Shown here in pieces: positions 1 through 16,137 of a stretch of DNA of 16,137 nucleotides. The translations under genes and the position numbers were made by a program. A model generated the notes under the pieces. The model ran no database searches, was not told the origin of the DNA, and was given only the letters and a program-made list of their open reading frames with translations. Every line of letters starts with the position of its first letter. The first letter of the stretch is position 1. Location: NCBI GenBank assembly GCA_037133055.1, contig JBAXOY010000073.1, forward strand, positions 1 through 16,137, in the 5' to 3' direction. Source of the DNA: Chlamydiota bacterium. Lineage in GTDB: Bacteria; Auribacterota; Tritonobacteria; UBA1439.

Positions 1-1
1 C

Positions 2-317
2 GAAGCCGCCGATCACATCGCTGGGCTGATTGCCGGTGCTGATGGCGGATCGGTCGACGATCCGCTGCTCGAGGTGATCGGCCGCGGCACCCCCGCCGAG
101 CTCGACGAGCGCCACGATCGGCTCCGACGGGCCATCCGAGACTTCGACACCGCGACGATCAGCACCATCCACGGCTTCTGCTCACAGGTGCGGTCGTCCA
201 TGGGCGTCTTGTCACCCGACAACATCGACGCCGTACCGGCAGAGTCCGAAGGCGAACTCATCGGGCAGGTCTGCGCTGACCTGTTGTTCCGCCAGCTCGA
301 CGAAGCCGTCGAGGATC
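2..317 (+). CDS. recB: Internal fragment of a RecB/UvrD-family helicase-nuclease (exodeoxyribonuclease V beta-like), open at the window start and apparently broken at ~317
   Basis: Frame 2 is open from the edge and reads EAADHIAG...DPLLEVIGRGTPAELDERHDRLRRAIRDFDTATISTIHGFCSQV. RL..A..DFD.A.I.TIHGFC is the RecB/AddA-type UvrD helicase motif. After ~317 the frame is just the antisense of the PHP gene. Confidence 0.7.
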
Positions 318-481
318 CCCTCGGCGGCCGCGGCCTCGAGCGCCTCGCCGATGCCGTTCACCGTGTCGTGGTCGGCGATCCCCAGCGCCGAGAGCCCGGC
401 CTCCCGCGCCTTGCGCACGAGTTCGGCCGGAGCGAAGAGGCCGTCGGAGGCGTTCGTATGGACGTGCAGGTCAATGCGCAT
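314..481 (-). CDS. N-terminal part of a PHP-domain metal-dependent phosphoesterase (TrpH/YciV-like), truncated
   Basis: MRIDLHVHTNASDG (HxH...SDG) and ALGIADHDT motifs. Similarity stops right after AAAAEGI, where a PGVE-type motif would be expected. An alternative in-frame ATG at 538 overlaps the upstream stop (TGATG). Confidence 0.8.
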
Positions 482-3173: not shown

Positions 3174-3198
3174 GGCGGTTATCCTAATGTAGCGCGGC

Positions 3199-3503
3199 AC
3201 GCGGATGAACGCGGATTGTCAGGATAGACAGGATACAAAAGGGGGACAAAAGCGGCTGGATACTGAAATCGGACGCAGATTTCGCAGATGAACGCAGATG
3301 GGGGAACAGCCCCAGGTCAGAGGTTCAAAACCAAAGGTTCACTATTGCTTTTTGCTTTGGGCCTTGAACTTTCAACCGTAGTTTGATCTGCGTGCTCTGC
3401 GTTCATCTGCGTCCCGAATGCCGTTTCCCTTTATATCTTCACGCCGTAGTCTTATCTGCGTTCATCCTGATGATCCGCGTTCATCTGCGTCCAGGCGTCG
3501 AAG
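3199..3503. repeat. Nested inverted-repeat element built from ACGCRGATGA / TCATCYGCGT units
   Basis: Outer arms 3199-3225 and 3464-3490, middle arms 3271-3299 and 3386-3414, inner arms ~3322-3336 and ~3355-3370. Confidence 0.85.
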
Positions 3504-3519
3504 CGTATATCTCCGCCGC

Positions 3520-3984
3520 TCAATCGGCGCGCGTCTCCTCCTCGGAGATGAGACGGAACGCCTCCTCCGGGGTCGGGGCGGCGCGGAGATTCTCCAGGAA
3601 CTCGCCGCTCTCGGACAGCTTGGCGATGTTGGCGAGCGCCTTCACGTGGGGGCCCGACATGCCGGTTGGCGCGGCGAGGAAGAAGAAGATGTGGGACGGC
3701 TTGCCGTCCATGGCGTCGAAGTCGATCCCCTCCGGAGAGACGGCGAGCGAGCAGGTGAGCTCGCGCACCGCGTCGGTCTTGCAGTGGGGCACCGCGATCC
3801 CCCGCTCCAGCCCGGTGCTGCCCTCCGCCTCGCGCGCCATCGTCGCGTCCACGAGCAGGTTTTTGTCGGCGACCTTCCCCGCCGCGACGAGTATCCCCAC
3901 GAGCTCCTCGACGATGCCGCGCTTGTCGCGGTTGCGGAGCCCGATCTGTATCAGCCGCGGGGTGAGCAGTTGGGTCAGAAGCAT
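3520..3984 (-). CDS. PTS EIIA-domain protein (fructose/mannitol/nitrogen-regulatory EIIA-2 family)
   Basis: AREAEGSTGLERGIAVPHCK with the phospho-accepting His, plus GIDFDAMDGKPSHIFF and HVKALANIAKL. Confidence 0.9.
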   Translation of the reverse strand: MLLTQLLTPRLIQIGLRNRDKRGIVEELVGILVAAGKVADKNLLVDATMAREAEGSTGLERGIAVPHCKTDAVRELTCSLAVSPEGIDFDAMDGKPSHIFFFLAAPTGMSGPHVKALANIAKLSESGEFLENLRAAPTPEEAFRLISEEETRAD

Positions 3985-4034
3985 GGATGTGCCTTTCTAT
4001 AGTAGTGAGGGATATCCCTCGTGACCACTCGGGT

Positions 4035-4149
4035 AGTCAGAAGTCAGGAGCCGAAATCCAGAATGGATCGCGAATACGCTTCCGGAAATATCGCCGCCGG
4101 CGCCCTCATTCCAAGTCCTGGCTCCTGACTTCTGAATTCCGGCTCCTGA
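4035..4149. repeat. Heptamer-unit inverted-repeat element
   Basis: Left arm AGTCAGA AGTCAGG AGCCGAA ATCCAGA; right arm TCCTGGC TCCTGAC TTCTGAA TTCCGGC TCCTGA. Perfect 16-bp inverted pair at 4037-4052 / 4120-4135. Confidence 0.85.
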
Positions 4150-4164
4150 GCAGTTACGATCCAT

Positions 4165-4659
4165 CTATTCGATGCCGTCGTACAGCTCCCGGATCTTCTC
4201 GTCGCCCTTGACGACCAGGACCGGGCACCGCGCCTCGCGGAAGATACGCTCCCCCTCGTCGAAGTAGCAGTCCCTGCGCGAGCGCGGGGCATCGAGCTCC
4301 CCCATGACCAGCAGGTCCGCCTCGAGCTCCCGGGCCCTCTGCGTGACGAGCGTGTGGACATCTCCCTTCTCGAGGACCGTGGTGATCCCGACGCCCTTCG
4401 CCTCGGCGAGGTCCCGCACGTGGTTCAGGTACCGCCTCCCGTCCTCCTCGAGGTCGTGCGCGTAATCCATCTCCTCCATGCGGATGAAGATGCGCGCCTT
4501 GAGCAGGTCCCCGAGTATCTTTGTGTCCACCACATAGATGGCGATGAGCTCGGCCCCCAGCAGACGCGCGAGCGCCACCGCGTACTGCGCGGCGAGGAGG
4601 GCCCGCTCGTTGCCCCCGATGCTGACCATGATCCGCCTGATGCCGTGGGCGAGCGCCAT
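4165..4659 (-). CDS. Universal stress protein (UspA family)
   Basis: IRRIMVSIGG...AAQYAVALARLLGAELIAIYVVD, then ARELEADLLVMG and IFREARCPVLVVK. GGAGG RBS; starts 4 nt after the subunit D stop. Confidence 0.9.
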   Translation of the reverse strand: MALAHGIRRIMVSIGGNERALLAAQYAVALARLLGAELIAIYVVDTKILGDLLKARIFIRMEEMDYAHDLEEDGRRYLNHVRDLAEAKGVGITTVLEKGDVHTLVTQRARELEADLLVMGELDAPRSRRDCYFDEGERIFREARCPVLVVKGDEKIRELYDGIE

Positions 4660-4663
4660 GGGG

Positions 4664-5311
4664 TCAGCGGTCCTCCCCGGATTCGGCCCGCGCGCGAGAG
4701 AGGCGCGCCTTGATCAACTTGAGAATGAAAAACGCCTCCCGGTCGGACTCCTCGAGGGCGTCCAGGATGTATTTTAAGACGTCCGAGTAATCGGGGATAT
4801 ATATTTTTTCGAGCGCATTCACGCGCCGGATGCTCTTTTTGACCTCGCGCGCGAGCCGTATGACCGAAATGCGCATCCCGGCGAGGTCGTCCAGGCGCTT
4901 CAAAACCACCGCAAAGCGGCGCTGGGCCTCGTCGAGCCAGAAGCTTGTCGGCCGGTGGGCGTAGAAGGGCGGGGCCCCGCGCGGGGTCGACCGCACGGTC
5001 GGGAGGTTCACCCCCATCACCCTCCGCTCGGTGATGCGCGTCTCGACGGTGATCCCGACGGCCCAGGATGCCTCCCTGACGCCCCGCACCCCGATGGCGA
5101 GCATCGCCTCCTCGAGCGCGGCGTAGGCCCCGGCGAGCTCCTCGTCGAGGATCCGCTGCGCGTTCGTGGCGGCGGCCATGAGTCCGAGGAGCTCGGCGAC
5201 GAGGATGTCGCGCTTCTTCGTGAGGAGCTCGTGCCCCTCCCGGGCGAAGGCGAGGCTCGTCTTTGTCTTGATCAGGTTCGACTTTGTCGGGGCGATCGCG
5301 GAGCGCGCCAT
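4664..5311 (-). CDS. ntpD: V/A-type ATP synthase subunit D
   Basis: APTKSNL...AREGHELLTKKRDIL and EVKKSIRRVNALEKIYIP...LEESDREAFF. Confidence 0.95.
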   Translation of the reverse strand: MARSAIAPTKSNLIKTKTSLAFAREGHELLTKKRDILVAELLGLMAAATNAQRILDEELAGAYAALEEAMLAIGVRGVREASWAVGITVETRITERRVMGVNLPTVRSTPRGAPPFYAHRPTSFWLDEAQRRFAVVLKRLDDLAGMRISVIRLAREVKKSIRRVNALEKIYIPDYSDVLKYILDALEESDREAFFILKLIKARLSRARAESGEDR

Positions 5312-5330
5312 GGGGTGCCGCCTTACGGGC

Positions 5331-6725
5331 TCACGCCCGGTAATGCCTGTCCATCTCCTCGTCCGTCATCCGGTGGAGCTCGTCGCGGGGCAGCGCGGAG
5401 AGGACCCGCCAGCCGAGGTCGAGCGTCTCGCCGATCGAGCGGTCCTCGTGCTCTCCCTGGCTCAGGAACTTCTCCTCGAAATCCCTCCCGAACTTGAGGT
5501 AGGTGGTGTCGAGCGGGCTCAACTCCTCCTCGCCGATGACCGAGGCGAGGGCCCGGAGGTCTTTCACGTGGGCGTACGCCTCGAAGAGCTGGCTGGCGAG
5601 GTGCGCGTGGTCCTCGCGGGTCATCCCCGCGCCGATGCCGTCCTTCATGAGGCGCGAGAGCGAGGGGAGGCCGGCGATCGGGGGGTAGATCCCGCGCTGG
5701 AAGAGCTCCCGCTCGAGGACGATCTGCCCCTCGGTGATGAAACCGGTGAGGTCGGGGATCGGGTGCGTGATGTCGTCGTTCGGCATCGTCAGGATCGGGA
5801 TCTGGGTGATCGAGCCGGGGCACCCCTGGATCATGCCGGCCCGCTCGTAGATGCTCGCCAGGTCGCTGTACAGGTAGCCGGGGTACCCCTTCCGGCTCGG
5901 GATGTCGCCCCGCGCCGTCGCGATCTCGCGCAGGCTCTCGCCGTAGTTGGACATGTCGGTGAGGACGACGAGCACGTGCATGCCGACGGTGAAGGCGAGG
6001 TGCTCGGCGAGCGTCAGCGCCGCCCGCGGCGTGGTGAGGCGCTCCACGGAGGGGTCGTCGGCGAGGTTGAGGAAAAGCGCCACGTTCTCGAGCACGCCGC
6101 TCTCCTCGAAGCTGTCGATGAAGAAGCGGGCCGTGTCGTACTTGATCCCCATGGCCGCGAAAACGACACAGAACTGCGCCCCCTCGCCGAGGATCTTCGC
6201 CTGGCGGGTGATCTGCGCGGCGATGCGGTTGTGCGGCAGGCCGCTCCCGGAAAAGATCGGGAGCTTCTGGCCGCGGATGAGGGTGTTCATCCCGTCTATC
6301 GCGGAGATGCCGGTCTGGATGAACTGCCGGGGGTACTCCCGCGCGGTCGGGTTGATGGGCAGGCCGTTCACGTTGAGCGAGATCTCGCTGATCGGCTCCG
6401 GCCCGTTGTCGCGCGGGCGCCCGATGCCGTCGAAGACCCGCCCGAGCATCTCGCGCGACACCGGGATCTCGAGCGGCCGCCCGAAGAAGCGGACCCGGGT
6501 TCCGGGGATGGTGAGCCCCATCGTCCCCTCGAAGACCTGCATCGCGACCAGGGTGTCGGAGGACTCGAGGATGAGGCCCAGGCGGACCCGCCCGTCGGCG
6601 CCGCGCACCTCGGCGAGCTCGTTGTAGCCCACGGCCCCCGCGCCCCTGACGATCACGAGCGGCCCCATGATCTCGCCGACCCCGAGGTACTCCCGCCCGC
6701 TCAGCGCCCGCTCAGCGCCGCCCAT
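5331..6725 (-). CDS. ntpB: V/A-type ATP synthase subunit B
   Basis: [50 protein letters not shown] and [22 protein letters not shown] at 6725 follows GGAGG and overlaps the end of subunit A. Confidence 0.97.
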
Positions 6726-8514
6726 GGCGCGCCTCCAGTTCCGCGATCGAGCGATCGAGCTCCGCCGCCATCCGGTCGAGCGCCGCAAGGTCGTCGTTTC
6801 GCACCGTCTGCCGCATCCGCATCATCTCCCGGTAGACCTTCAGCCCCCGCACCGCGACGAGCGTCGCCCCCTTCTGGATCGCCCGGTTTCCCAGACGGTA
6901 GAAGGCGAGGATGAGGGAGAGCATCTTCACCTGCTTCTCGATCGGGGAGTACGCGTCGAGCTCGCTGAACGCGTCCTGCTGAAGGAACGAGTTCTTGAAC
7001 AGGGCGCAGGTCTCGAGGACGATGCGCTGCGAGTCCGGCAGGACGTCGGGCCCCACCAGCTTCACCACCTGCTGGAGACGGTTCTCCTGCTGGAGGAGCC
7101 CCATGATTTCGGTGCGGAGCCCCTTCCACTGCGGGAACCCCTGCGCCTCCCACCAGGGGGCGAGGTCGTCGACGTACTCGCTGTAGGAGTCGAGCCAGCT
7201 CACCGCGGGGTAGTGGCGGGCGTTGGCAAGCTGGCGGTCGAGCACCCAGAGGGCGCGCACAAAGCGCTTCGAGTGCTGTGTCACCGGCTCGGAGAAATCT
7301 CCGCCGGGCGGCGAGACGGAGCCGATCACCGTGACGGAACCCTCGCCTCCCCCGAGCGTGGTCACCATCCCGCCGCGCTCGTAGAACTCGGCGAGGCGGG
7401 TGGGGAGGTACGAGGGGAAGCCCTCGTCCGCGGGGAGCTCCTCGAGCCGACCCGAGAGCTCCCGCAGGGCCTCGGCCCACCGCGAGGTCGAGTCGGCCAT
7501 CACCGCGACGTGGTAGCCCATGTCGCGGTAGTACTCGGCGAGCGTGATGCCCGTGTAGATCGACGCCTCGCGGGCCGCCACCGGCATGTTCGAGGTGTTG
7601 GCGATCATGATCGTCCGTTCCATGAGCGGCCTGCCGGTGCGGGGGTCGACGAGCCTCGGAAACTCGGTGAGCACGTCGGTCATCTCGTTCCCGCGCTCCC
7701 CGCAGCCGATGAAGATGATCACCTGCGCGTCGCACCACTTGGCGAGGGCGTGCTGGATCATCGTCTTGCCCGTCCCGAACCCGCCCGGGACCACCACGGT
7801 GCCGCCCTTGGCGAGCGGAAAGAGGGTATCGATCACGCGCTGCCCGGTGACGAGCAGCGCCGAGGGCGACATCTTCCGCGCGTAGGGGCGCCCCCTCCTG
7901 ACCGGCCAGCGCTGGCAGAGCGTCACCGCCCGCTCCCCCCCGGCGCCGGCGACGACGGCGATCGCGTCGTCGAGGCGGTACTCTCCCTCGGGGGCGACCG
8001 ACGCGAGCGTCCCCTCGACCCCCGGGGGCGCCATGACCCGGTGCTCTACGCTCTCCGTTTCCATGACCGAGGCGATGACCTCGCCGCCGCGGACGGCGTC
8101 CCCGGCCTTCACCCGGGGCGTCACGCGCCACGCCCGCTCCCGGTCGAGGGCGGGGAGGTGGATGCCGCGCTGGATGTAGTGCCCGGTCGTGTCGCGGATC
8201 ACGGTGAGCGGCCGCTGGATGCCGTCGAAAATGCCGCCGAGAAGGCCGGGGCCGAGCTCGACCGAGAGGGGCATCCCGGAGCCGAAGACGCTCTCCCCCG
8301 GTCTCACCCCCGTCGTGTCCTCGTAGACCTGGATGGAGGCAATCTCCCCGTCGAGGCGGACGATCTCGCCGACGAGGCGGTCGTTGCCGACCTCGACGAG
8401 CTCCAGCATCTGGGCGTCCCGGACGCCGCGCGCCTGCACGAGCGGCCCGACGATCCGGCTCACCCTGCCGATCACCATCCCGCTGTCGCTGCCCATGATT
8501 CCCGCCTGTTTCAT
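6712..8514 (-). CDS. ntpA: V/A-type ATP synthase catalytic subunit A
   Basis: Walker [46 protein letters not shown] and [13 protein letters not shown]. 600 aa, so no intein. Confidence 0.97.
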
Positions 8515-8546
8515 GAAGGGTTAATCCGAAACTTACCAGATACTGT

Positions 8547-8728
8547 GGGACGCAGATAAACGCAGATTGTCAGGATAGTCAGGATACAACTACTTCTTTT
8601 GTTTTCGAAAGAGAATCAAATTGTTACCGCTATTGTATCTGCGTCCCGGCGTTGAAACATTTCTGGGCTGTTTTCCAATCCGCGCGCATCCGCGGCGATC
8701 CGCGTCCAAAACACGGATTTAGTTTCCC
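8547..8728. repeat. ACGCAGAT-family inverted-repeat element between subunits E and A
   Basis: GGGACGCAGATA (8547-8558) pairs with TATCTGCGTCCC (8636-8647). The left arm is near-identical to 3199-3238 and the right part is near-identical to 13651-13761. Confidence 0.85.
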
Positions 8729-8729
8729 A

Positions 8730-9353
8730 TCACCCGAACAGCGTCTTCGAGATCAGGAGCCTGAGCTCCCTGACCATGCGTCCGATCCTCGCCTCGAGCG
8801 TGTTGTCCACCGCGACCCTGCCCGTGCGGGACCGCACGATCACGCCGGCGCCGGGGGCCGCGTCGCCCGAGACGGAGACCGATGCGCCCGCGAGCCCATC
8901 CCGCGCGAGCGCGTCGGCGATTTCGCGGAGCGCGTCCCCGTCGAGCCGCTTTCCGGCGCCGGCGGGGAGCAGGAGCTCGATCTCCCGCTCCCCGAGCTCG
9001 CGCGCCCCCTCGACGGCGAGCCGCTTCAGGAGGTCCGCGTAGCCCGGATCCGCAACGAGCCCGGAGATCCTCCGCCGCACGCGCCCCATGACCTCCTCGA
9101 TCAGCCGCTCGCGGCCCCGGAGTTCGATTTTCCGCGACTCGAGCTGGACCTTCGAGAGGATGCGCTTCGATTCGAGGGCGGCCGCGGCCTCGCTTTGCCG
9201 GAGCGCCCCGGCCGCCTCTCGCGCCGCCTCCTCCTCCGCCTGAGCGATCCGCGCGGAGACCTTCTCGCCGGCGAGGCGGAGCGTTTCCGCGGCCTGCGCC
9301 GCCGCGTCCGCAGCGATTGTGCGGCAGAGATCGGCGACTCCCGGATCTTCCAT
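8730..9353 (-). CDS. ntpE: V/A-type ATP synthase subunit E
   Basis: Coiled-coil N-half, C-terminal AGVIVRSRTGRVAVDNTLEARI, ATG after AGGAG at 9353, and operon position. Confidence 0.9.
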   Translation of the reverse strand: MEDPGVADLCRTIAADAAAQAAETLRLAGEKVSARIAQAEEEAAREAAGALRQSEAAAALESKRILSKVQLESRKIELRGRERLIEEVMGRVRRRISGLVADPGYADLLKRLAVEGARELGEREIELLLPAGAGKRLDGDALREIADALARDGLAGASVSVSGDAAPGAGVIVRSRTGRVAVDNTLEARIGRMVRELRLLISKTLFG

Positions 9354-9396
9354 CTCTCCTGTCCCTATCTGCGTCCCGGCATTACCGCACATGCGT

Positions 9397-9699
9397 TCAC
9401 ATGCTCACGCCCACGGCGGTCTTGATCATTTCCCGGATCGACTTTCGCTCCGCGGAGGGGCCGCCGCGGTCGGGGATGTGGATGATGAGCGGGGAGCCCG
9501 TCGCGTAGTAGCCGCGGAGCTCCGGCTTCACCTCGGCGGCGAGCCGCTCGGTGATGACGATGATGGAGACCCCCTCGGTGGCCGCCGCCACCTTCAGGGC
9601 CTCGCGGGTCTCGGGGGGGGTCCGCGCCGCTCTCCCCTCCACCCCGGCGAGGCGGAATCCGGTCACCGTCTCATCGTCCCCGATGACGAAGTAGCCCAC
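9397..9699 (-). CDS. ntpF: V/A-type ATP synthase subunit F
   Basis: VIGDDETVTGFRLAGVEG...IIVITERLA...PLIIHIPD...IKTAVGV. GTG start. Confidence 0.95.
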   Translation of the reverse strand: MGYFVIGDDETVTGFRLAGVEGRAARTPPETREALKVAAATEGVSIIVITERLAAEVKPELRGYYATGSPLIIHIPDRGGPSAERKSIREMIKTAVGVSM

Positions 9700-9811
9700 A
9701 CGCGCCCCCTTCTCTCCCCGTATGCGGATCTATCCGTGTCCATCCGTGGCGAACAACAACGCGCGCACACGCGGTGACACGGGCAAAGTTAAGCGCGGTC
9801 TGCGGCCGCGG

Positions 9812-10177
9812 TCACACCCGCGTCAGGATGAGAAACGCGATGACCCAACCCCAGATCGCGACTCCCTCGGCGAGGCCGACGAAGATGATCGCCCGGCCCG
9901 CGAGCTCCGGCTTCTCCGCGATCGCCCCCATCGCCGCAGCGCCCACGTACGCGACCGCGATCCCCGCCGCGAGCGACCCCACGGCGACCGCGATGGATGC
10001 GGCGATGAAGGCCCCGCGCACCACGCTGGGATCGACGTTCTTCACCACCGCCGCCTCGCCCTGCGCGTGCACCGTGTAGATGCCGCCCGCGAGAATGAAG
10101 AAAATTGCCGCGGCGACCGGGGCGAGCAGCGCCACGCTCACGAATTTCTTCAGCATTCCACTCCGCATTCTCCTCAT
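9812..10177 (-). CDS. ntpK: V/A-type ATP synthase proteolipid subunit K/c (single hairpin plus N-terminal signal-like segment)
   Basis: AGIAVAYVGAAAMGAIAEKPE...IFVGLAEGVAIWG with the ion-binding Glu. ATG at 10177 follows AAGGAGG. Confidence 0.93.
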   Translation of the reverse strand: MRRMRSGMLKKFVSVALLAPVAAAIFFILAGGIYTVHAQGEAAVVKNVDPSVVRGAFIAASIAVAVGSLAAGIAVAYVGAAAMGAIAEKPELAGRAIIFVGLAEGVAIWGWVIAFLILTRV

Positions 10178-10218
10178 TGCCGCCTCCTTTGTATCGGTGA
10201 AGGGCAGCCGCCGCGCCC

Positions 10219-12192
10219 TCACGTCTCCGCGATCGTTATGGGCTCGTAACGAGAGCCCTCCGCATTGAAGAATTTGCCGAAAAACTCGTAATACTCGAGC
10301 CGGATCGCCTGGATGGTGACGATCAGTCCCTCCAGGAAGAAGACGAGGATATTCCCCAGCAGGATGATCAATGCCGAGGAGATGGTCCCTCCGGGCGTGC
10401 GGGCGATGACGTCCGACAGGCTAAAGATTGCCATAAAGAGCATCCCGTGCGCCAGCGCAAAAGCGGCGACGCGGATGAACGAGAGCGTGTTCGAAAGAAA
10501 GCCGATGAATATCTCGATCAGTTCGATGACCGTTTCGAGAACATAGCTGAGCGGCCCCTCGGGAAAGAGCCGCGCAGTCCTCCCGGTCAGGCGGGCGAAC
10601 GGGGCCTTCAGGAAGAGGAGGACGATCGGCAGCCCGACGACGAGGAACACGAGTCCCCTTGTGACGCCCTTCCCCTCGAGCATGAGGGCGTTGATGGCGA
10701 GCCCCGCGCCCCCCCAGTAGATGACGCCGGCGAGAAGGCCCGCCTTGTCGAAGATGCCCCGGACCCAGTCGCGGGTCCTGAGGGCATTGACGATGTTCAA
10801 CACGAGGCCGAGGGTCACCACCGCGATGCCGAAGAAGATCGCCGCCTTCAGGAAGAGGAACACGTTGCCCATCGGCCGCACCCAGAGGGGTTTGAACCAG
10901 CTCTCCACGCCGAAGAAGCTGCCGTAGAGGAACCCGAACACGGTCGAGGAGAGCCCGCACGAAAAGATGAGCGCGCCGGCCTTTTTCACCTGCGCCGCGC
11001 GGCGCCCCCTGACCAGCAGGGCGCCGAGCAGGGTCAGGACGAGCCCCTGGCCGATGTCCCCGAACATCACGCCGAACATGAGCAGGAAGGTCACCGCCAC
11101 GAAGATCGTCGGGTCGATCGTCTCGTATGCCGGGATGCCGTAGGTCGAGGTGAGGAGCTCGAACGGACGAACGAAGAACGGGTTCCTGAAGAGGACGGGC
11201 ACTTTCACCCGCCCCTCCTTCACCCCCGGGACGTCGCGGGGCGTGCGGACCTCGATGGCGCAGTGGCCGCCGGTGGCGGCGGTGACCGCCGCGCGGAGCC
11301 CGGGGACCTTCTTGTCGGGCACCCAGCCGGCGATCAGGCAGGCGTTCCCGGTTTTTCTGAAATGCCCGCGTGCGCGCGCGAGGAGTTTCGTGCAGGCGAT
11401 ACGCTCGCTCAACTCGGTGAGGGGGGCGCGGTAGCGCCGGCGCGCCGCGGCGATCTCCTGGTCGAGGGCGTCCATGCGGCCGCGCAGCGCGTCCGTCTTT
11501 TCGCGCAGCGCCGCCTGGATGTCGCCCGCGCCTCCGGCCGCCTCCGGGGGGGGCGCCATGCGCTCGAATGCCGCCTCCCGAAGGGCGGCGTCGAACACCG
11601 CCTTGTCTTTCTTCAGACCGATCGTTGCGACCATGACGCTGTCGCCCTCTGAGCCGAGCGGCATCAGGACGTGCGGTATCCCGTCGAGGGCGCGCTCGAG
11701 GAGGGGGATATTCCGGCGGCCCACTCTCCCGGTCTCGATATCGAGGAATGAATAGCGCGCCCCGGTCTCTATGCCCCCGAGCGGGGCGAAGAATTTCGCC
11801 CCGCTCGCGATCACGAGGAGTTTATCGAGTTCCTGTGCCTTCGACTCCCGCTCGAGGACCATGCCGCCGACCTCGGCGTCGATCGCGGCGAGTTTTCCCT
11901 CCCACGCGTCCACGTCGACGGCGGACAGGTACTGTGCGGCGGAGGAGATCGTGCAGGGAAGGTCCTTGATCCCGATCCCCCGCGCGATCTCGCGGAGCTT
12001 CTTCTCGAGCGCGCCCGCCCGGTCGAGGGTCTCGCCGGTCCCCTCGGCGGCGAGGTCCTGCGCCCAGTCCTCGACCTCTCCGCAGTCCGCGAGGTGCATG
12101 ACGCCCGCCTCGGCGATCTTCCCTGTGACCGCGTCGAGGTCCCCCTTCAGGACGAGGAGGTTTACCTGCGACATCTTCTCTGGCCTGAACAC
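10219..12192 (-). CDS. ntpI: V/A-type ATP synthase subunit I/a
   Basis: IAGWVP, YGIPAYETIDPT, MFGDIGQG, SNTLSFIRVAAFALAH (essential Arg) and RLEYYEFFGKFF. GTG start after GGAGG. Confidence 0.95.
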   Translation of the reverse strand: MFRPEKMSQVNLLVLKGDLDAVTGKIAEAGVMHLADCGEVEDWAQDLAAEGTGETLDRAGALEKKLREIARGIGIKDLPCTISSAAQYLSAVDVDAWEGKLAAIDAEVGGMVLERESKAQELDKLLVIASGAKFFAPLGGIETGARYSFLDIETGRVGRRNIPLLERALDGIPHVLMPLGSEGDSVMVATIGLKKDKAVFDAALREAAFERMAPPPEAAGGAGDIQAALREKTDALRGRMDALDQEIAAARRRYRAPLTELSERIACTKLLARARGHFRKTGNACLIAGWVPDKKVPGLRAAVTAATGGHCAIEVRTPRDVPGVKEGRVKVPVLFRNPFFVRPFELLTSTYGIPAYETIDPTIFVAVTFLLMFGVMFGDIGQGLVLTLLGALLVRGRRAAQVKKAGALIFSCGLSSTVFGFLYGSFFGVESWFKPLWVRPMGNVFLFLKAAIFFGIAVVTLGLVLNIVNALRTRDWVRGIFDKAGLLAGVIYWGGAGLAINALMLEGKGVTRGLVFLVVGLPIVLLFLKAPFARLTGRTARLFPEGPLSYVLETVIELIEIFIGFLSNTLSFIRVAAFALAHGMLFMAIFSLSDVIARTPGGTISSALIILLGNILVFFLEGLIVTIQAIRLEYYEFFGKFFNAEGSRYEPITIAET

Positions 12193-12210
12193 GGCGCCTC
12201 CCGCCTGCGG

Positions 12211-12250
12211 CGAGCTATCGAGCTATCGAGCTATCGAGCGATCGAGTTGA
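12211..12250. repeat. Tandem 8-mer CGAGCTAT (3 exact plus 2 degenerate copies)
   Basis: cgagctat cgagctat cgagctat cgagcgat cgagttga fills most of the gap between subunits C and I. Confidence 0.85.
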
Positions 12251-12252
12251 GA

Positions 12253-13302
12253 TCATGCCCCCGACGCCGCCCGGAGAATCCTCTCCGCGGTGAGCCCGAG
12301 GCTCTTCCCCACCAGTATCCGGCGCACCCGCCGCGACTCGGCCCGCGACAGCGAGAGGTAGGCGATCACCGTCCCGATGGTGAACGGGTATCCGGCCAGG
12401 GCCCTTCGGGCCTCCGACGCGAGCGCCTCCTCGAGGAGCGCCCCGAGGAACCGCATCTGCTCCAGCGCCTCCCCGGCGCCCTTCAGGGATCCTGAGGAGG
12501 GGAGGGGGGCGAAGCGCAGCGCGTCGATGAAGGCCCGGGTGTCCTTCGCCGAGTACGCGCGCAGCAGGAGGTCATCGCTCAGGTGGTAGCCCCCGGGGAG
12601 CAGCACGCGGCGCGCCTCGGCCGTGGGGAAGTCGGTGTAGCGCGTCAGCCTGAGGAGGATTTCGACATTGCGGATGTCCACTTCGGTGCCGATGATCCGC
12701 GATGCCGCGGCGCGGTCCGCGCGGTCGAGCCCCTTCACGGTCTCCCAGAGCCGCCGGTAGTAGTCCGTCTCGAGCGCGGCCTCGAGGGAGAAGAGCTGTC
12801 CCGATCGCCGGTACCCCTCGTAGGCCGATACGAGCGGCTTCCGGTAGGGGGTGTCCTCGAGGAGCAGGATGATCTCCTCGATGCTCGATGCCTTCAGCAT
12901 CGCCTCCACCGGGATGTCGCAGCAGATCTTTTCGGCGATGATGCCGTCCCGATCGTCCCATGCCTTCTCGTGCCAGATGCGTATGATCCGCTCGACCTTC
13001 ACCACGTCGTAGAGTTCCATCAGGGCGAAGACAAAGTCCGCGATGCCGCCCTTCGCGTGCCTCAGGATGGCGCGGTGCCGGTCGATCTCGATCTCTATGA
13101 GGATCTTCTCCGCCTTTTGGAGCGGCGCGCCCTCGTCGATCGCGGCGGCGACCGGGCGGTACTCCGTGTCCCTGAGCAACCCGGCCGCCTCCGGGAGGTC
13201 CGCGCTGCGGGCGAGGGAGGCGAGGACCCCCTCGCTGAGCCGGGCGCTCAACTTGGCCCTGAGGAGGGCGTTCAGGAAGGCGTACTTCGAAAGTGATCTC
13301 AT
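12253..13302 (-). CDS. ntpC: V/A-type ATP synthase subunit C/d
   Basis: KYAFLNALLRAKLS, EAALETDYYRRLW, GTEVDIRNVEILLR and PFTIGTVIAYL...ESRRVRRIL.GK. 349 aa. Confidence 0.9.
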   Translation of the reverse strand: MRSLSKYAFLNALLRAKLSARLSEGVLASLARSADLPEAAGLLRDTEYRPVAAAIDEGAPLQKAEKILIEIEIDRHRAILRHAKGGIADFVFALMELYDVVKVERIIRIWHEKAWDDRDGIIAEKICCDIPVEAMLKASSIEEIILLLEDTPYRKPLVSAYEGYRRSGQLFSLEAALETDYYRRLWETVKGLDRADRAAASRIIGTEVDIRNVEILLRLTRYTDFPTAEARRVLLPGGYHLSDDLLLRAYSAKDTRAFIDALRFAPLPSSGSLKGAGEALEQMRFLGALLEEALASEARRALAGYPFTIGTVIAYLSLSRAESRRVRRILVGKSLGLTAERILRAASGA

Positions 13303-13613
13303 CCGAGCAGGAACTCCATGACCTTGCCCGCGGCCTCGTCGAGCATCGGCTCTTTCTCTACGGCCTCCCGCCGGACGCGCTCCTCCGTCTCTTTCAGGAT
13401 GCGGTCGCGCTCGCCCTCGCTTTTCGCGCGCGCCTCCGCCCGCAGGCGTTTCGCCTTCTCCTGCTCCTCGCGCGTCGAGCGCTCGGCGATCTCCCGTGCC
13501 CTCGTCTCCGCCTCAGCGAGCATCGCCTCGGACTTGAGGCGGGTCTGGGCGAGCTGCTTTTTCCCTTCCGATTCGGCGCGCAGCACCTGTTCGACGGCGT
13601 CTTTCATCGGCAT
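13299..13613 (-). CDS. V/A-type ATP synthase peripheral-stalk subunit H/G
   Basis: 104-aa charged coiled coil (MKDAVEQVLRAESEG...AAGKVMEFLLG). First gene of the operon, AAGGA RBS, and ATGA overlap with subunit C. Confidence 0.8.
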   Translation of the reverse strand: MPMKDAVEQVLRAESEGKKQLAQTRLKSEAMLAEAETRAREIAERSTREEQEKAKRLRAEARAKSEGERDRILKETEERVRREAVEKEPMLDEAAGKVMEFLLG

Positions 13614-13650
13614 ATGAGGTGTCCTTTCCCGAAACGGCGCACGGTCTTTC

Positions 13651-13799
13651 TCCGTGTCCAAAACACGGATTTTGTTTCCCTGTTTTGTCTGCGTTCATCT
13701 GCGTCCCGGCGTTGAAGCATTTTCAGGATGTTTTCCAATCCGCGCCGATCCGCGTCCAAAAAACTGCTGTCTCCGTGTCCTCCGTGCCTCCGTGGTGAA
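13651..13799. repeat. Composite repeat element between rnr and the ATPase operon
   Basis: Hairpin TCCGTGT-CCAAA-ACACGGA, TCTGCGTTCATCTGCGTCC, ATCCGCG x2 and CTCCGTGTC CTCCGTGC CTCCGTGGTGAA. Shares long segments with 8637-8728. Confidence 0.85.
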
Positions 13800-13828
13800 C
13801 AATAATCCCTGTCGCGTCACTCCCGTCT

Positions 13829-16012
13829 CTATTTCCGGCGCCGCCGACCGGATTTGTGCGGCGGGCGGGTCAGATCAGGCCCCGCGAGCGTGAAATCCAC
13901 CTGGCGCGTGGGCAGGTTCACGCGTGAAATCTGGACGGTGACGATATCGCCGACCTGGAACCTCCGCCGCGTGCGTTCGCCCGTCATGCACGACCGGTTT
14001 TTGGCCATGCGGTAGAAATCGTCGGTGAGGGTGGAGACGTGCACGAGCCCGTCCAGGAGGTAGTCGTTGAGGTAGACCGAAAAGCCGAAGTCCCGGATGC
14101 CGGTGATCACGCCCTTCATCGCGTCGATCGTCCCGTCCTCGAGGTGCTGGCTGAGGTACTGGAGCTTCCGCAGTTTGACGCACTCCCGCTCCGCGTCCTC
14201 CGCGGCCTGCTCCGCCTCGGAGCAGTGCACGGCGAACCCCTCGAGGTCCGGCGGCGCGGCGACCACCTTCCCCCGGCAGAGTTCTTTTAGAAACCGGTGC
14301 GTGACGAGATCGGGGTAGCGCCGGATGGGCGAGGTGAAATAGAGGTAGTGGGGGCACCCGAGGCCGTAGTGGCCGACGTTGCGGGTCGAGTAGACGGCGA
14401 GCTTCAGGGACCGCAGGAAGCCGAGATGCAGGGCGTACGCCTCCGGCTTCCCCTTCACGCGGTCCAGGAAGGCCTGGATGGCCCTCTTGTCGTGGATGTC
14501 GCGTATCGTGTGGCCGAACGGCTTGATGAGCTCGAGGTACTCCCAGAGGTTCTTGTCGTCGGGCTCCTCGTGCACGCGCCAGAGCGCGGGCGCGCGCCGG
14601 GCCGTGAAAAGGGCGCCGACCGCCTCGTTTGCCGCGAGCATGAATTCCTCGATCAGGATGTGGGAGATGTCGTACTCCTCGCGCCGCACCGCGGCGATGC
14701 GTCCCTCGGCGTCGAACTCGATCACCGCCTCCGGCATGTCGAGGTTGATGGCGCCGCGCAGGAAGCGGTTCTTCCTCATGGCCGTCGCCAGCCGCTCCAT
14801 CTCCTTGAGGACGGGGAGGATGAGGCGCTCGGCCTCGCCATCGGGAAGCGCCTCGCCGCCGAGGAGCGCGCTCACCCGCGCGTAGGTGAAGCGCTTCCGC
14901 GAACGGATGACGGTCGAGGCGAACCGGGATTCCAGCACGCGGCCGTCGGGCGAGAGGGTGACGAAGGCGCTCTGGGTGAGGCGGTCCTCGTTTTCCCGGA
15001 GGCTGCAGACGTCGTTCGAGAGCGCCTCGGGAAGCATCGGCAACACGCGCCCGGGGAAGTAGACGCTTGTGGCGCGGGCGCGGGCCTCGTCGTCGATCGG
15101 GCTCCCCGGGACGACATAGTGCGAGACGTCGGCGATGTGCACGCCGAGGACCCAGTCGCTCCCCTTGCGGACGAGCGAGACCGCGTCGTCGAAATCCTTC
15201 GCGGTGACCGGGTCGACGGTGAAGGTGATCTCCCCGCGCAGGTCCTCGCGCCCCCTGAGGTCCGCCTCTCCGGCCTTCTGCGCCACGCGCCGCGCCTCTT
15301 TGAGCGCCGCCGGGGGGTACTGGATGCGCAGCTTGTGGTCGTGGATGATGGCGAGGAGATCGGTCTCCGGCTCGCCCGCGTCGCCGAGCACCTCCGTCAC
15401 GACCCCCTCGGGGTTCGCCTGCCGTGTGCCCCAGCCGGTGACCCGAACGACGACCTTTTGCCCAGGCCGCGCGGCGCCGGCGTCCCCGGGGGCGATATAG
15501 ACGTCGCGCTGTATGCGCGGGTTGTCGGGGGCGACGCGGAGGAGCGCCCCCGTCTTCTCCAGCGTCCCCACGATCGTCGTGTTCGCCCGCTCCAGGACCT
15601 CGACGATCCGGCCCTCGCGCCGCCCTGAATCGCCGCGCGCGCGGCCGCGCACCCCCTCGAGGAGTTTCGCCGCCACGGTGTCGCCGTGCATCGCGCCGGC
15701 CATGTTCTCGCCGTGGATGTACACGTCGGCGTCCTTGCCCGACGCGGGGACGACGAAGCCGAAGCCCCTCTGGTGCACCTGGAGCCTCCCGGTGACCAAA
15801 TCTACGTCGGCGGGGACCGCGTACCGGTTGCCCTTGACGCGGACCAGGCGCCCCGTGCGCTCGAGGTCCTTGAGCATGCGGCGCACCTCCCGGGCGTCGT
15901 CCCCGGCGACGTCGAGCGCGCCGTACAATTGCGCGCGGTGCATCGGGCGGTAGCGCGGCGAGGCGATGAACGCGAGGATCTCTTCGGGGGAGGGGAGGCG
16001 ATTCCGGCTCAT
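13829..16012 (-). CDS. rnr: Ribonuclease R
   Basis: N-terminal HTH, cold-shock domains (HQRGFGFV, AMHGDTV), RNB motif DPVTAKDFDDA, HIADVSHYV, EEFMLAANE, FTSPIRRYPDL, an S1 domain and a short basic tail. Confidence 0.96.
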   Translation of the reverse strand: MSRNRLPSPEEILAFIASPRYRPMHRAQLYGALDVAGDDAREVRRMLKDLERTGRLVRVKGNRYAVPADVDLVTGRLQVHQRGFGFVVPASGKDADVYIHGENMAGAMHGDTVAAKLLEGVRGRARGDSGRREGRIVEVLERANTTIVGTLEKTGALLRVAPDNPRIQRDVYIAPGDAGAARPGQKVVVRVTGWGTRQANPEGVVTEVLGDAGEPETDLLAIIHDHKLRIQYPPAALKEARRVAQKAGEADLRGREDLRGEITFTVDPVTAKDFDDAVSLVRKGSDWVLGVHIADVSHYVVPGSPIDDEARARATSVYFPGRVLPMLPEALSNDVCSLRENEDRLTQSAFVTLSPDGRVLESRFASTVIRSRKRFTYARVSALLGGEALPDGEAERLILPVLKEMERLATAMRKNRFLRGAINLDMPEAVIEFDAEGRIAAVRREEYDISHILIEEFMLAANEAVGALFTARRAPALWRVHEEPDDKNLWEYLELIKPFGHTIRDIHDKRAIQAFLDRVKGKPEAYALHLGFLRSLKLAVYSTRNVGHYGLGCPHYLYFTSPIRRYPDLVTHRFLKELCRGKVVAAPPDLEGFAVHCSEAEQAAEDAERECVKLRKLQYLSQHLEDGTIDAMKGVITGIRDFGFSVYLNDYLLDGLVHVSTLTDDFYRMAKNRSCMTGERTRRRFQVGDIVTVQISRVNLPTRQVDFTLAGPDLTRPPHKSGRRRRK

Positions 16013-16018
16013 GCGTCT

Positions 16019-16046
16019 ATAGTATACCAACGACCGGCTTTTGCAA
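16019..16046 (-). promoter_or_regulatory. Probable promoter of rnr, implying a leaderless or near-leaderless transcript
   Basis: Minus strand TTGCAA-16 nt-TACTAT (also an extended -10, TGGTATACT) ends 6-8 nt before the ATG. No Shine-Dalgarno sequence. Confidence 0.55.
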
Positions 16047-16122
16047 AGGAAAGAAGGGGAGGGGTAGTAGGGGGACAGTTTCGGGGGTACAACTCCTCTA
16101 CTGATCCGGCTTTAACGGTAGC

Positions 16123-16137
16123 ACGCAGATGAACGCA
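16123..16137. repeat. Start of another ACGCAGATGA-family arm, cut by the window edge
   Basis: ACGCAGATGAACGCA matches the left-arm unit at 3199, 3273-3299 and 8550. Confidence 0.75.

Follow-up and report, generated by a model that had tools for sequence, protein, structure and literature searches.

Tandem-repeat hairpins at gene junctions of an Auribacterota bacterium: probable remains of arm–gene–arm cassettes

The 16,137-nt contig JBAXOY010000073.1 of a Chlamydiota bacterium (GTDB Auribacterota, Tritonobacteria, UBA1439; assembly GCA_037133055.1), hereafter the window, carries eight intergenic modules of short tandem repeats, some of them inside a V/A-type ATP synthase operon. What are these repeats, and how do they come to lie between the genes of a core operon? 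A first-pass annotation had described them as one dispersed family of hairpins with neither target-site duplications nor a transposase. We find it probable that they are the remains of cassettes, each of which would consist of a repeat arm, one four-helix-bundle or GxxExxY gene, and an inverted repeat arm at a gene junction. Some of these were presumably multiplied by transposases, while native ones would enter junctions by a route of their own.

The window is the whole of contig C73 of the source genome (G000; 2.99 Mb, 92% complete, 191 contigs), which was compared with seven relatives (G001–G007); the eight genomes of the family are 80–96% complete. Genes were called with our own codon model (2514 genes, 82% coding), and the gap counts below therefore depend on that model. 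Arm families are designated by letters, A–J, coined for this analysis. The two RNA runs listed, which exist as assembled contigs only, contain 7% and 0% of the words.

Window modules and their gene-bearing parents

All eight modules were found where they had been placed. Their parts are as follows (strand given where assigned).

3186–3506: nested hairpin of family A, in the gap that follows the phosphotransferase system (PTS) IIA gene
4013–4020: left-hand 8-bp target duplication belonging to the family C element, 6/8 identical to 4158–4165
4021–4157, minus strand: family C mini-transposon of 137 bp, with ISBst12-type 12-bp ends and 7-mer arms
4044–4109, minus strand: remnant of a four-helix-bundle open reading frame (ORF), from alignment to the intact 121-aa ORF, positions read off the sequence
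4158–4165: right-hand 8-bp target duplication, immediately adjoining the upstream gene's stop codon
8547–8728: family A/B element, gap between V/A-ATPase subunits E and A
9368–9381: probably a lone remnant of an A-family end, gap between subunits F and E; A end motif seen by eye
9732–9750: two units of an F/A-type arm, gap between subunits K and F
12211–12250: family D solo 3′ arm, 8-nt unit in 4.5 copies, gap between subunits C and I; TRF score 65
13651–13799: composite of F-type and A-type arms, gap between RNase R and subunit H
16109–16137: family A element, left end only, truncated where the contig stops

As had been claimed, every gap longer than 40 nt from position 3,200 onward was armed (346, 180, 215, 43, 112, 60, 215, and 124 nt), the 38-nt I/K gap contained no arm sequence, and no module broke an ORF of the window. 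The repeats were likewise concentrated between genes throughout the genome, with 133/137 A, 28/29 B, 61/61 C, 23/23 D, and 31/34 F arms being intergenic against a coding share of 82%. A strict periodicity detector fired in 170 of 1372 gaps, compared with about one in dinucleotide shuffles, and in 37 of 4297 coding chunks. The statement that almost every gap is occupied applied to this contig (7 of 11 gaps by arm patterns), which has the highest arm density among contigs with six or more gaps, but not to the genome as a whole (217/1372, 16%). Similarly, the purine-rich arm came first in families A (43 vs 3), B (8 vs 0), and C (25 vs 1) but not in E (0 vs 5), and the D 5′ arm, at 50% purine, also runs contrary to that rule. 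Instead of one dispersed family, at least four arm families are present, nested in one another. Arms D, E, and F, together with a further 7-mer family, were also seen by eye in about seven gaps of a ribosomal-protein operon (G000:C43:1–12750).

The genome holds six candidate parent genes, as indicated by profile search: two GxxExxY genes (on contigs C111 and C122) and four TIGR02436 matches. Repeat arms enclose five of the six, namely both GxxExxY genes and the four-helix genes on C135, C91, and C60, which bears out the proposal that the window modules are cargo-less members of repeat-armed cassettes whose full forms carry such genes. Both GxxExxY proteins retain the D...ExK motif (by eye). 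Among the eight genomes, GxxExxY genes occur in seven and four-helix genes in all. The arm unit varies with the cargo: among the flanks listed, it is mostly 9–10 nt around GxxExxY genes and 7–8 nt around four-helix genes. In relatives, a four-helix gene is enclosed by D arms in G006 (L223) and by E arms in both G005 and G007, and a GxxExxY gene is enclosed by F arms in G007 (L198; all by eye). Every arm family in the window could be traced to a parent that carries a gene, either in this genome or in a relative; with the parents in G000, window arms agree at 83–100% identity.

The correspondence is clearest in the nested hairpin at 3186–3506. At the inner arms, 45/48 and 29/29 positions agree with the C122 GxxExxY cassette; at the outer arms, 39/47 and 39/46 positions agree with the C111 cassette. 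The core is an unrelated 7-mer hairpin where the parent has a gene, and two near-full copies occur elsewhere in the genome at 89% identity. The arm at 8547–8728 is 33/37 identical to the C111 5′ arm, and 13651–13799 has 58 nt in common with 8637–8694 at 88% identity. The last 72 nt before the contig end match six other loci at 90–96%. The unit type of 9732–9750 flanks GxxExxY genes in relatives (L196 and L208). Neither this module nor 9368–9381, each being one or two units long, had a blastn match elsewhere on its own at E ≤ 1e-3; that they are remnants is a weak reading, made by eye only. The hairpins folded more stably than shuffled sequences, with z scores of −7.9 (3185–3505), −4.1 (4021–4157), −2.4 (8530–8729), and −2.1 (13640–13810). 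On C111 (G000:C111:1–760), three A units stand in tandem at 107-bp spacing, the last bearing the GxxExxY gene; a similar tandem occurs in G003 (L200).

Could the arrays simply be sequence repeats produced by local slippage? The copy number of solo D, E, and I arms does vary, as slippage would predict. However, the arms are paired and inverted, the cores are common to several loci at 89–95% identity, and copies share deletion junctions and carry target duplications. Slippage is already contradicted for families A and C and may account only for the lengthening of existing arms; as an origin of the repeats, we regard it as extremely improbable.

Vehicles of families C and A

Contrary to the absence of target duplications and of transposase logic asserted earlier, family C is a mini-transposon, bounded by 12-bp inverted repeats of the ISBst12 group and flanked by 8-bp duplications; in the window copy, the duplication is retained at 6/8 positions. 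The intact cassette, on C135, measures 444 bp and contains a 121-aa four-helix ORF. The window copy is 87% identical to it over the aligned parts and lacks positions 80–379, a junction common to this and two other copies at 95% identity. Within the ORF remnant at 4044–4109, the start codon lies in the 5′ arm, the stop codon in the 3′ arm, and the deletion junction near 4085/4086. When 25 gene-less C copies were aligned to the C135 cassette, they fell into few deletion classes: 18 have in common a junction that ends at ~316–323, three (including the window copy) have the 80–379 deletion, three have a 60–351 deletion, and one copy is 57 bp long. The junction of the 18-copy class coincides with a 9-bp direct repeat, the deletion running between its two copies.

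Flanking sequences of C copies matched with a mean of 0.77 at a length of 8 bp, compared with 0.22–0.32 at other lengths, and 13 of 24 end pairs matched at 7 or 8 of 8 positions; three of these 24 pairs are not whole elements (two are inner pairs, one spans 3 kb), the window copy is not among them, and the shuffle allowed self-pairs. Since deletion junctions are shared by copies at separate loci, each with its own duplication, the deleted forms themselves moved. In one sequencing run (X12), a 637-bp contig that is ~94% identical in both flanking genes joins position 4018 to 4164. This is an empty site in which exactly 145 bp (137 + 8) are skipped, while a second run (X10) has a third allele there, with 125 other letters.

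A close described counterpart is ISDge4 of Deinococcus geothermalis, a member of the ISBst12 group of the IS66 family, which, as far as the accessible part of the source describes it, has the same 12-bp ends and an 8-bp repeat (PMC12898284). Family C shares these ends and this duplication length and has an empty site in a relative, but differs from ISBst12 elements in containing no transposase, its interior being either the four-helix cassette or a deleted form of it. ISBst12-type ends number 40 in G000, 77 in G003, and 47 in G007, compared with 0 in both congeners and 1 in the congener of G007. Beyond the family, at least 120 loci have such ends 405–435 bp apart in species genomes of many bacterial phyla and archaea. 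Among the 120 end pairs listed, 54 match at 7 or 8 of 8 flanking positions, versus 46 of 14,280 cross pairs. Of 120 ORFs, 114 were scanned by Pfam, and the periodicity count covered 116 loci (four with N excluded). The 114 ORFs included 11 matches to the four-helix family PF05635 (10 above cut-off), three to the GxxExxY-type PF13366, which the accessible part of PMC3424549 lists as of unknown function, and two to PF03050 (IS66 pieces).

Together, the ISBst12-group ends and 8-bp duplications make an ordinary IS66-family transposase, acting in trans, the most likely partner of family C on sequence grounds. The cassette would have gained these ends and been copied to at least 25 sites, a step whose footprints are seen and whose enzyme is deduced. 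The element at 4021–4157 is accordingly an explained mini-transposon with an unusual cargo history, and only one of the eight window modules. IS-derived miniature inverted-repeat transposable elements and mobile insertion cassettes form the natural comparison class. A 200-bp C derivative resembling the main deletion class is present in another genus of the family (L186; G007:C4). In the source genome, C copies are nested inside A elements at G000:C8:34040–34623 and C103:2406–3049, the latter retaining 7/8 of its target duplication. In G003, an arm-and-core element has ISBst12-type ends at L185 and is without them in the ATPase E/A and B/D gaps (L003; by eye).

Family A appears to have used other vehicles, or none. 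In G000, 19 paired A elements have their outer ends in common. G003 carries A hairpins within a uniform element, mostly 310–320 bp and up to 411 bp long, that has inverted ends of its own; 6 of 12 copies have exact 4-bp duplications compared with 18 of 132 cross pairs, and A hairpins would thus have ridden a different mini-transposon in that genome. The ends of this element are absent from G000. A-arm counts across the eight genomes are 185, 160, 127, 46, 23, 10, 4, and 0. An integron-like reading of the A ends was dropped, as their motifs do not seem to fit the integron core consensus.

Turnover at gene junctions and the route of entry

Relatives differ in whether the same gene junctions are filled or empty. 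The gap after the PTS gene measures 346 bp here and 7 bp in G001 of the same genus. In relatives, the E/A gap is either vacant or occupied by different arm families. The C/I gap, which bears the D arm here, is short in G002 and G004; G005 has an intact four-helix cassette with different arms there, and G007 has the arms fused. In the C/I gap of four loci (L003, L005, L006, and L007), the subunit C frame apparently runs into the arm, which supplies the stop codon (by eye). Contigs ~96% identical in their genes already differ in their gaps, in a comparison that ignored most joints, their sides being short; one contig that is 96% identical carries 206 other letters in place of 13651–13799. A junction that we take to be mlaE–mlaF-like bears three arm families across four genomes and is empty in three. 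At another, presumably ilvN–ilvC, the cassette protein of G007 is only 31–32% identical to those of G003 and G006, belongs to a separate clade, and lies between other arms (the cassette-protein tree has 31 rows, and its long branches leave deep joins unsure). Of the 27 cassette loci in relatives, 18 have a syntenic gene pair in G000, at 15 junctions, and nine have none. By eye, five of these 15 junctions bear clear arms, two possible arms, and eight none, relative to a baseline of 162 armed among 1514 co-directional junctions.

Such turnover bears on whether the hairpins could be regulatory elements of the host, that is, protein-binding or RNA-processing sites under selection, as proposed for Geobacter metallireducens. 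They are common in ATPase and ribosomal-protein operons, the genes beside them exceed the average in codon typicality (0.503 vs 0.445, p = 2e-5), and a strand bias is seen for solo arms of families A, F, and I (27:4, 16:3, and 8:0), all as a host function would have it. However, the same gaps are empty or occupied by other families in close relatives, arm counts swing from 185 to 0–4 within one genus, and the cores are gene debris. We therefore consider a host regulatory origin quite unlikely.

The arms do respect gene boundaries, as originally suggested: 15 of 40 solo 5′ arms begin within 8 nt of a stop codon (4.7 expected). Solo 3′ arms sit nearer the next start codon, and C copies lie in sense rather than antisense orientation by 13 to 3 (p = 0.02). 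Selection could explain these biases of polarity and stop-codon proximity as well as targeting could. Also relevant to the route of entry is the cassette at L233, whose protein is the nearest relative of the C135 protein within the family (71% identical, same clade, support 100/99). It has long arms and, by pattern search, no transposon ends, and its junction is empty in G000. Given such end-less copies of the same clade, together with unrelated cassettes at one junction, a second entry route appears likely.

This bears directly on the simplest alternative, in which there is no dedicated route at all: the cassettes would be passive passengers of mini-transposons or of repetitive extragenic palindrome (REP) doublets, end-less copies would have lost their ends, and junction preference would reflect selection. 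The ISBst12 ends on family C, the other mini-transposon around A hairpins in G003, and the many unrelated cargoes bracketed by ISBst12-type ends all accord with it, as do the proximity of REP hairpins to A ends described below and the presence of eight RAYT-like genes in the genome. It is harder to reconcile with L233 and other cassettes that span from stop codon to next start, intact and with no visible terminal repeat (by eye, and by pattern search for L233), with arms that begin at stop codons, or with an arm period that follows the cargo family, a match for which a passive passenger has no need. A arms flank none of these RAYT-like genes (C64, C17, C175, C88, C4, C11, C20, and C19; RAYT/TIRYT-like Y1 genes, several with long inverted ends of their own), and by eye their flanks contain no A, C, D, or F arms. 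On balance, the passenger explanation seems improbable to us, though less so than the other alternatives.

For the cassettes as native mobile units, we propose the following life cycle. The gene is lost by internal deletion, after which the hairpins erode in place to single arms; both stages are shown by the copies described above. Core operons would tolerate cassettes because these follow a stop codon, lie in sense, and fold into a long stem; as happens to the 23S rRNA intervening sequence, RNase III could cleave this stem between genes. Entry itself would be driven by the cassette proteins, with the GxxExxY nuclease cutting near a gene end and the break being repaired from a cassette copy. 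We put forward this last step tentatively, as the most plausible form of primary entry by cassette proteins, which is itself a possibility we would not yet call probable.

An alternative route, spread as RNA via a reverse transcriptase with an Avd-like four-helix protein as helper, deserves mention. PF05635 resembles the Avd of diversity-generating retroelements according to the accessible part of PMC10053308, weak bAvd matches were obtained here, and the sense orientation and long RNA stems would suit such a route. However, no PF00078 match was found in G000 or in five of the seven relatives, including the arm-rich G004 and G007, in genomes that are 80–96% complete. We consider this route very unlikely.

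Several observations weigh against the cassette reading. The empty site is documented by a single contig from a single run. A search of G000 (92% complete, in 191 contigs) for an IS66 transposase came back empty, and no exact or one-mismatch copy of the C ends was found at 29 IS66 loci of the phylum. Of the 120 stretches between ISBst12-type ends in other species, 106 had no cassette-gene match; as the cargo is mostly unrelated, capture appears unspecific. For family A, no target duplication emerged as a peak between 3 and 12 bp among the 19 paired elements of G000, where families D and F consist mostly of solo arms, and no GxxExxY ORF piece was recognizable in A elements, whose descent from GxxExxY cassettes therefore rests on the arms. 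Of 18 CGTC-type REP hairpins, 10 adjoin an A end, which points to a possible ordinary vehicle; the A copies of the window have no REP hairpin. The repeated use of the same junctions could reflect few insertion-tolerant positions rather than targeting. Finally, one four-helix clade adjoins a tRNA gene (by eye) in six genomes (G000:C49:2825–3145; L217, L218, L219, L224, and L241) and looks vertically kept.

The gene context of the modules, outside the elements, is as follows.

4664–13613, minus strand: host V/A-type ATP synthase operon, subunits H, C, I, K, F, E, A, B, and D
Window, minus strand: RNase R, V/A-type ATP synthase operon, universal-stress-like gene, and PTS IIA gene

NCBIfam matches were obtained for subunits C, I, K, F, E, A, B, and D; H is named from its position only, and the universal-stress-like gene, which has no NCBIfam match, is our own reading. 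Rfam gave no match within the window at E ≤ 1, and a promoter scan of the window returned 0 sites. Terminator-like sites in the window numbered 12, versus 6.0 ± 2.8 in shuffles, with one inside a module, and are uninformative. A metagenome scan with subunit E for close relatives recovered only four distant loci, 26–30% identical. At the start of the window (1–481), a plus-strand RecB-like fragment (TIGR00609, E = 5e-7) abuts a minus-strand PHP-family gene that stops after 89 codons; a chimera or misjoin at the contig start is possible. Another B subunit of a V/A-type ATPase, with 57% identity, is encoded at G000:C28:23709–25079, which implies a second V/A-ATPase operon in the genome.

Relation to described repeats and meaning for the family

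How much of this has been described before? The arms themselves are not new. In G. metallireducens, class 2 and class 3 repeats, printed in 2009 as "predicted global regulator binding sites", are tandem repeats paired on opposite strands at variable distance and patchy among species, and their consensus units correspond to our F and C arms, respectively. The accessible part of that report interprets them as protein-binding sites and names no cargo gene, terminal repeat, or target duplication (PMC2700814). In Xanthomonas and Nostoc, heptamer repeats are intergenic, often paired and inverted, and near or overlapping stop codons; as far as the source could be consulted, they come as one unit type per genome and were studied as quadruplex formers, with no link to cassettes (PMC4692102). 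CGTC-1 REPs, in the portion of PMC3733652 available, have the same hairpin shape (8-bp stem, 4-nt loop, CCA tail) that adjoins many A ends here, but they are single palindromes, unlike the tandem-repeat arms. No report linking the repeats to cassettes was found in the full-text literature, most subscription papers lying outside it; nor was one found that places arm–gene–arm cassettes between the genes of an mRNA or bounds them with ISBst12 ends.

Another close precedent is the 23S rRNA intervening sequence (S23p), which, in the accessible part of PMC4990558, shares the gene family, has heptamers just ahead of the start codon, and is cut by RNase III. Like it, the C135 cassette and its relatives have a four-helix gene (PF05635/TIGR02436) between complementary, heptamer-bearing ends that form a long terminal stem. 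Unlike it, as far as it is described there, all window modules lie between protein genes rather than in rRNA, and the system has many arm families and a second cargo, GxxExxY. The cassette system is thus a variant of the intervening-sequence design. A broader view, which we offer as a conjecture, is that transposase-free selfish cassettes home to core-operon junctions via the GxxExxY nuclease or an Avd-like four-helix protein and hide in mRNA as a cuttable stem. Such cassettes would be the common source of gene-bearing 23S rRNA intervening sequences and of the 7–10-nt intergenic repeats of many bacteria, with insertion sequence (IS) ends as later, hitch-hiking vehicles.

The cassette reading would bring GxxExxY and the "23S rRNA intervening sequence" four-helix bundle, two very large families of unknown function, together with long-unexplained intergenic repeats into one testable system. 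Every stage of the life cycle can be seen at named junctions in this family of genomes, from the full cassette through the gene-less hairpin and the single arm to the empty site, along with capture by two different transposons. If confirmed, end-less entry at gene junctions would be a new kind of DNA mobility.

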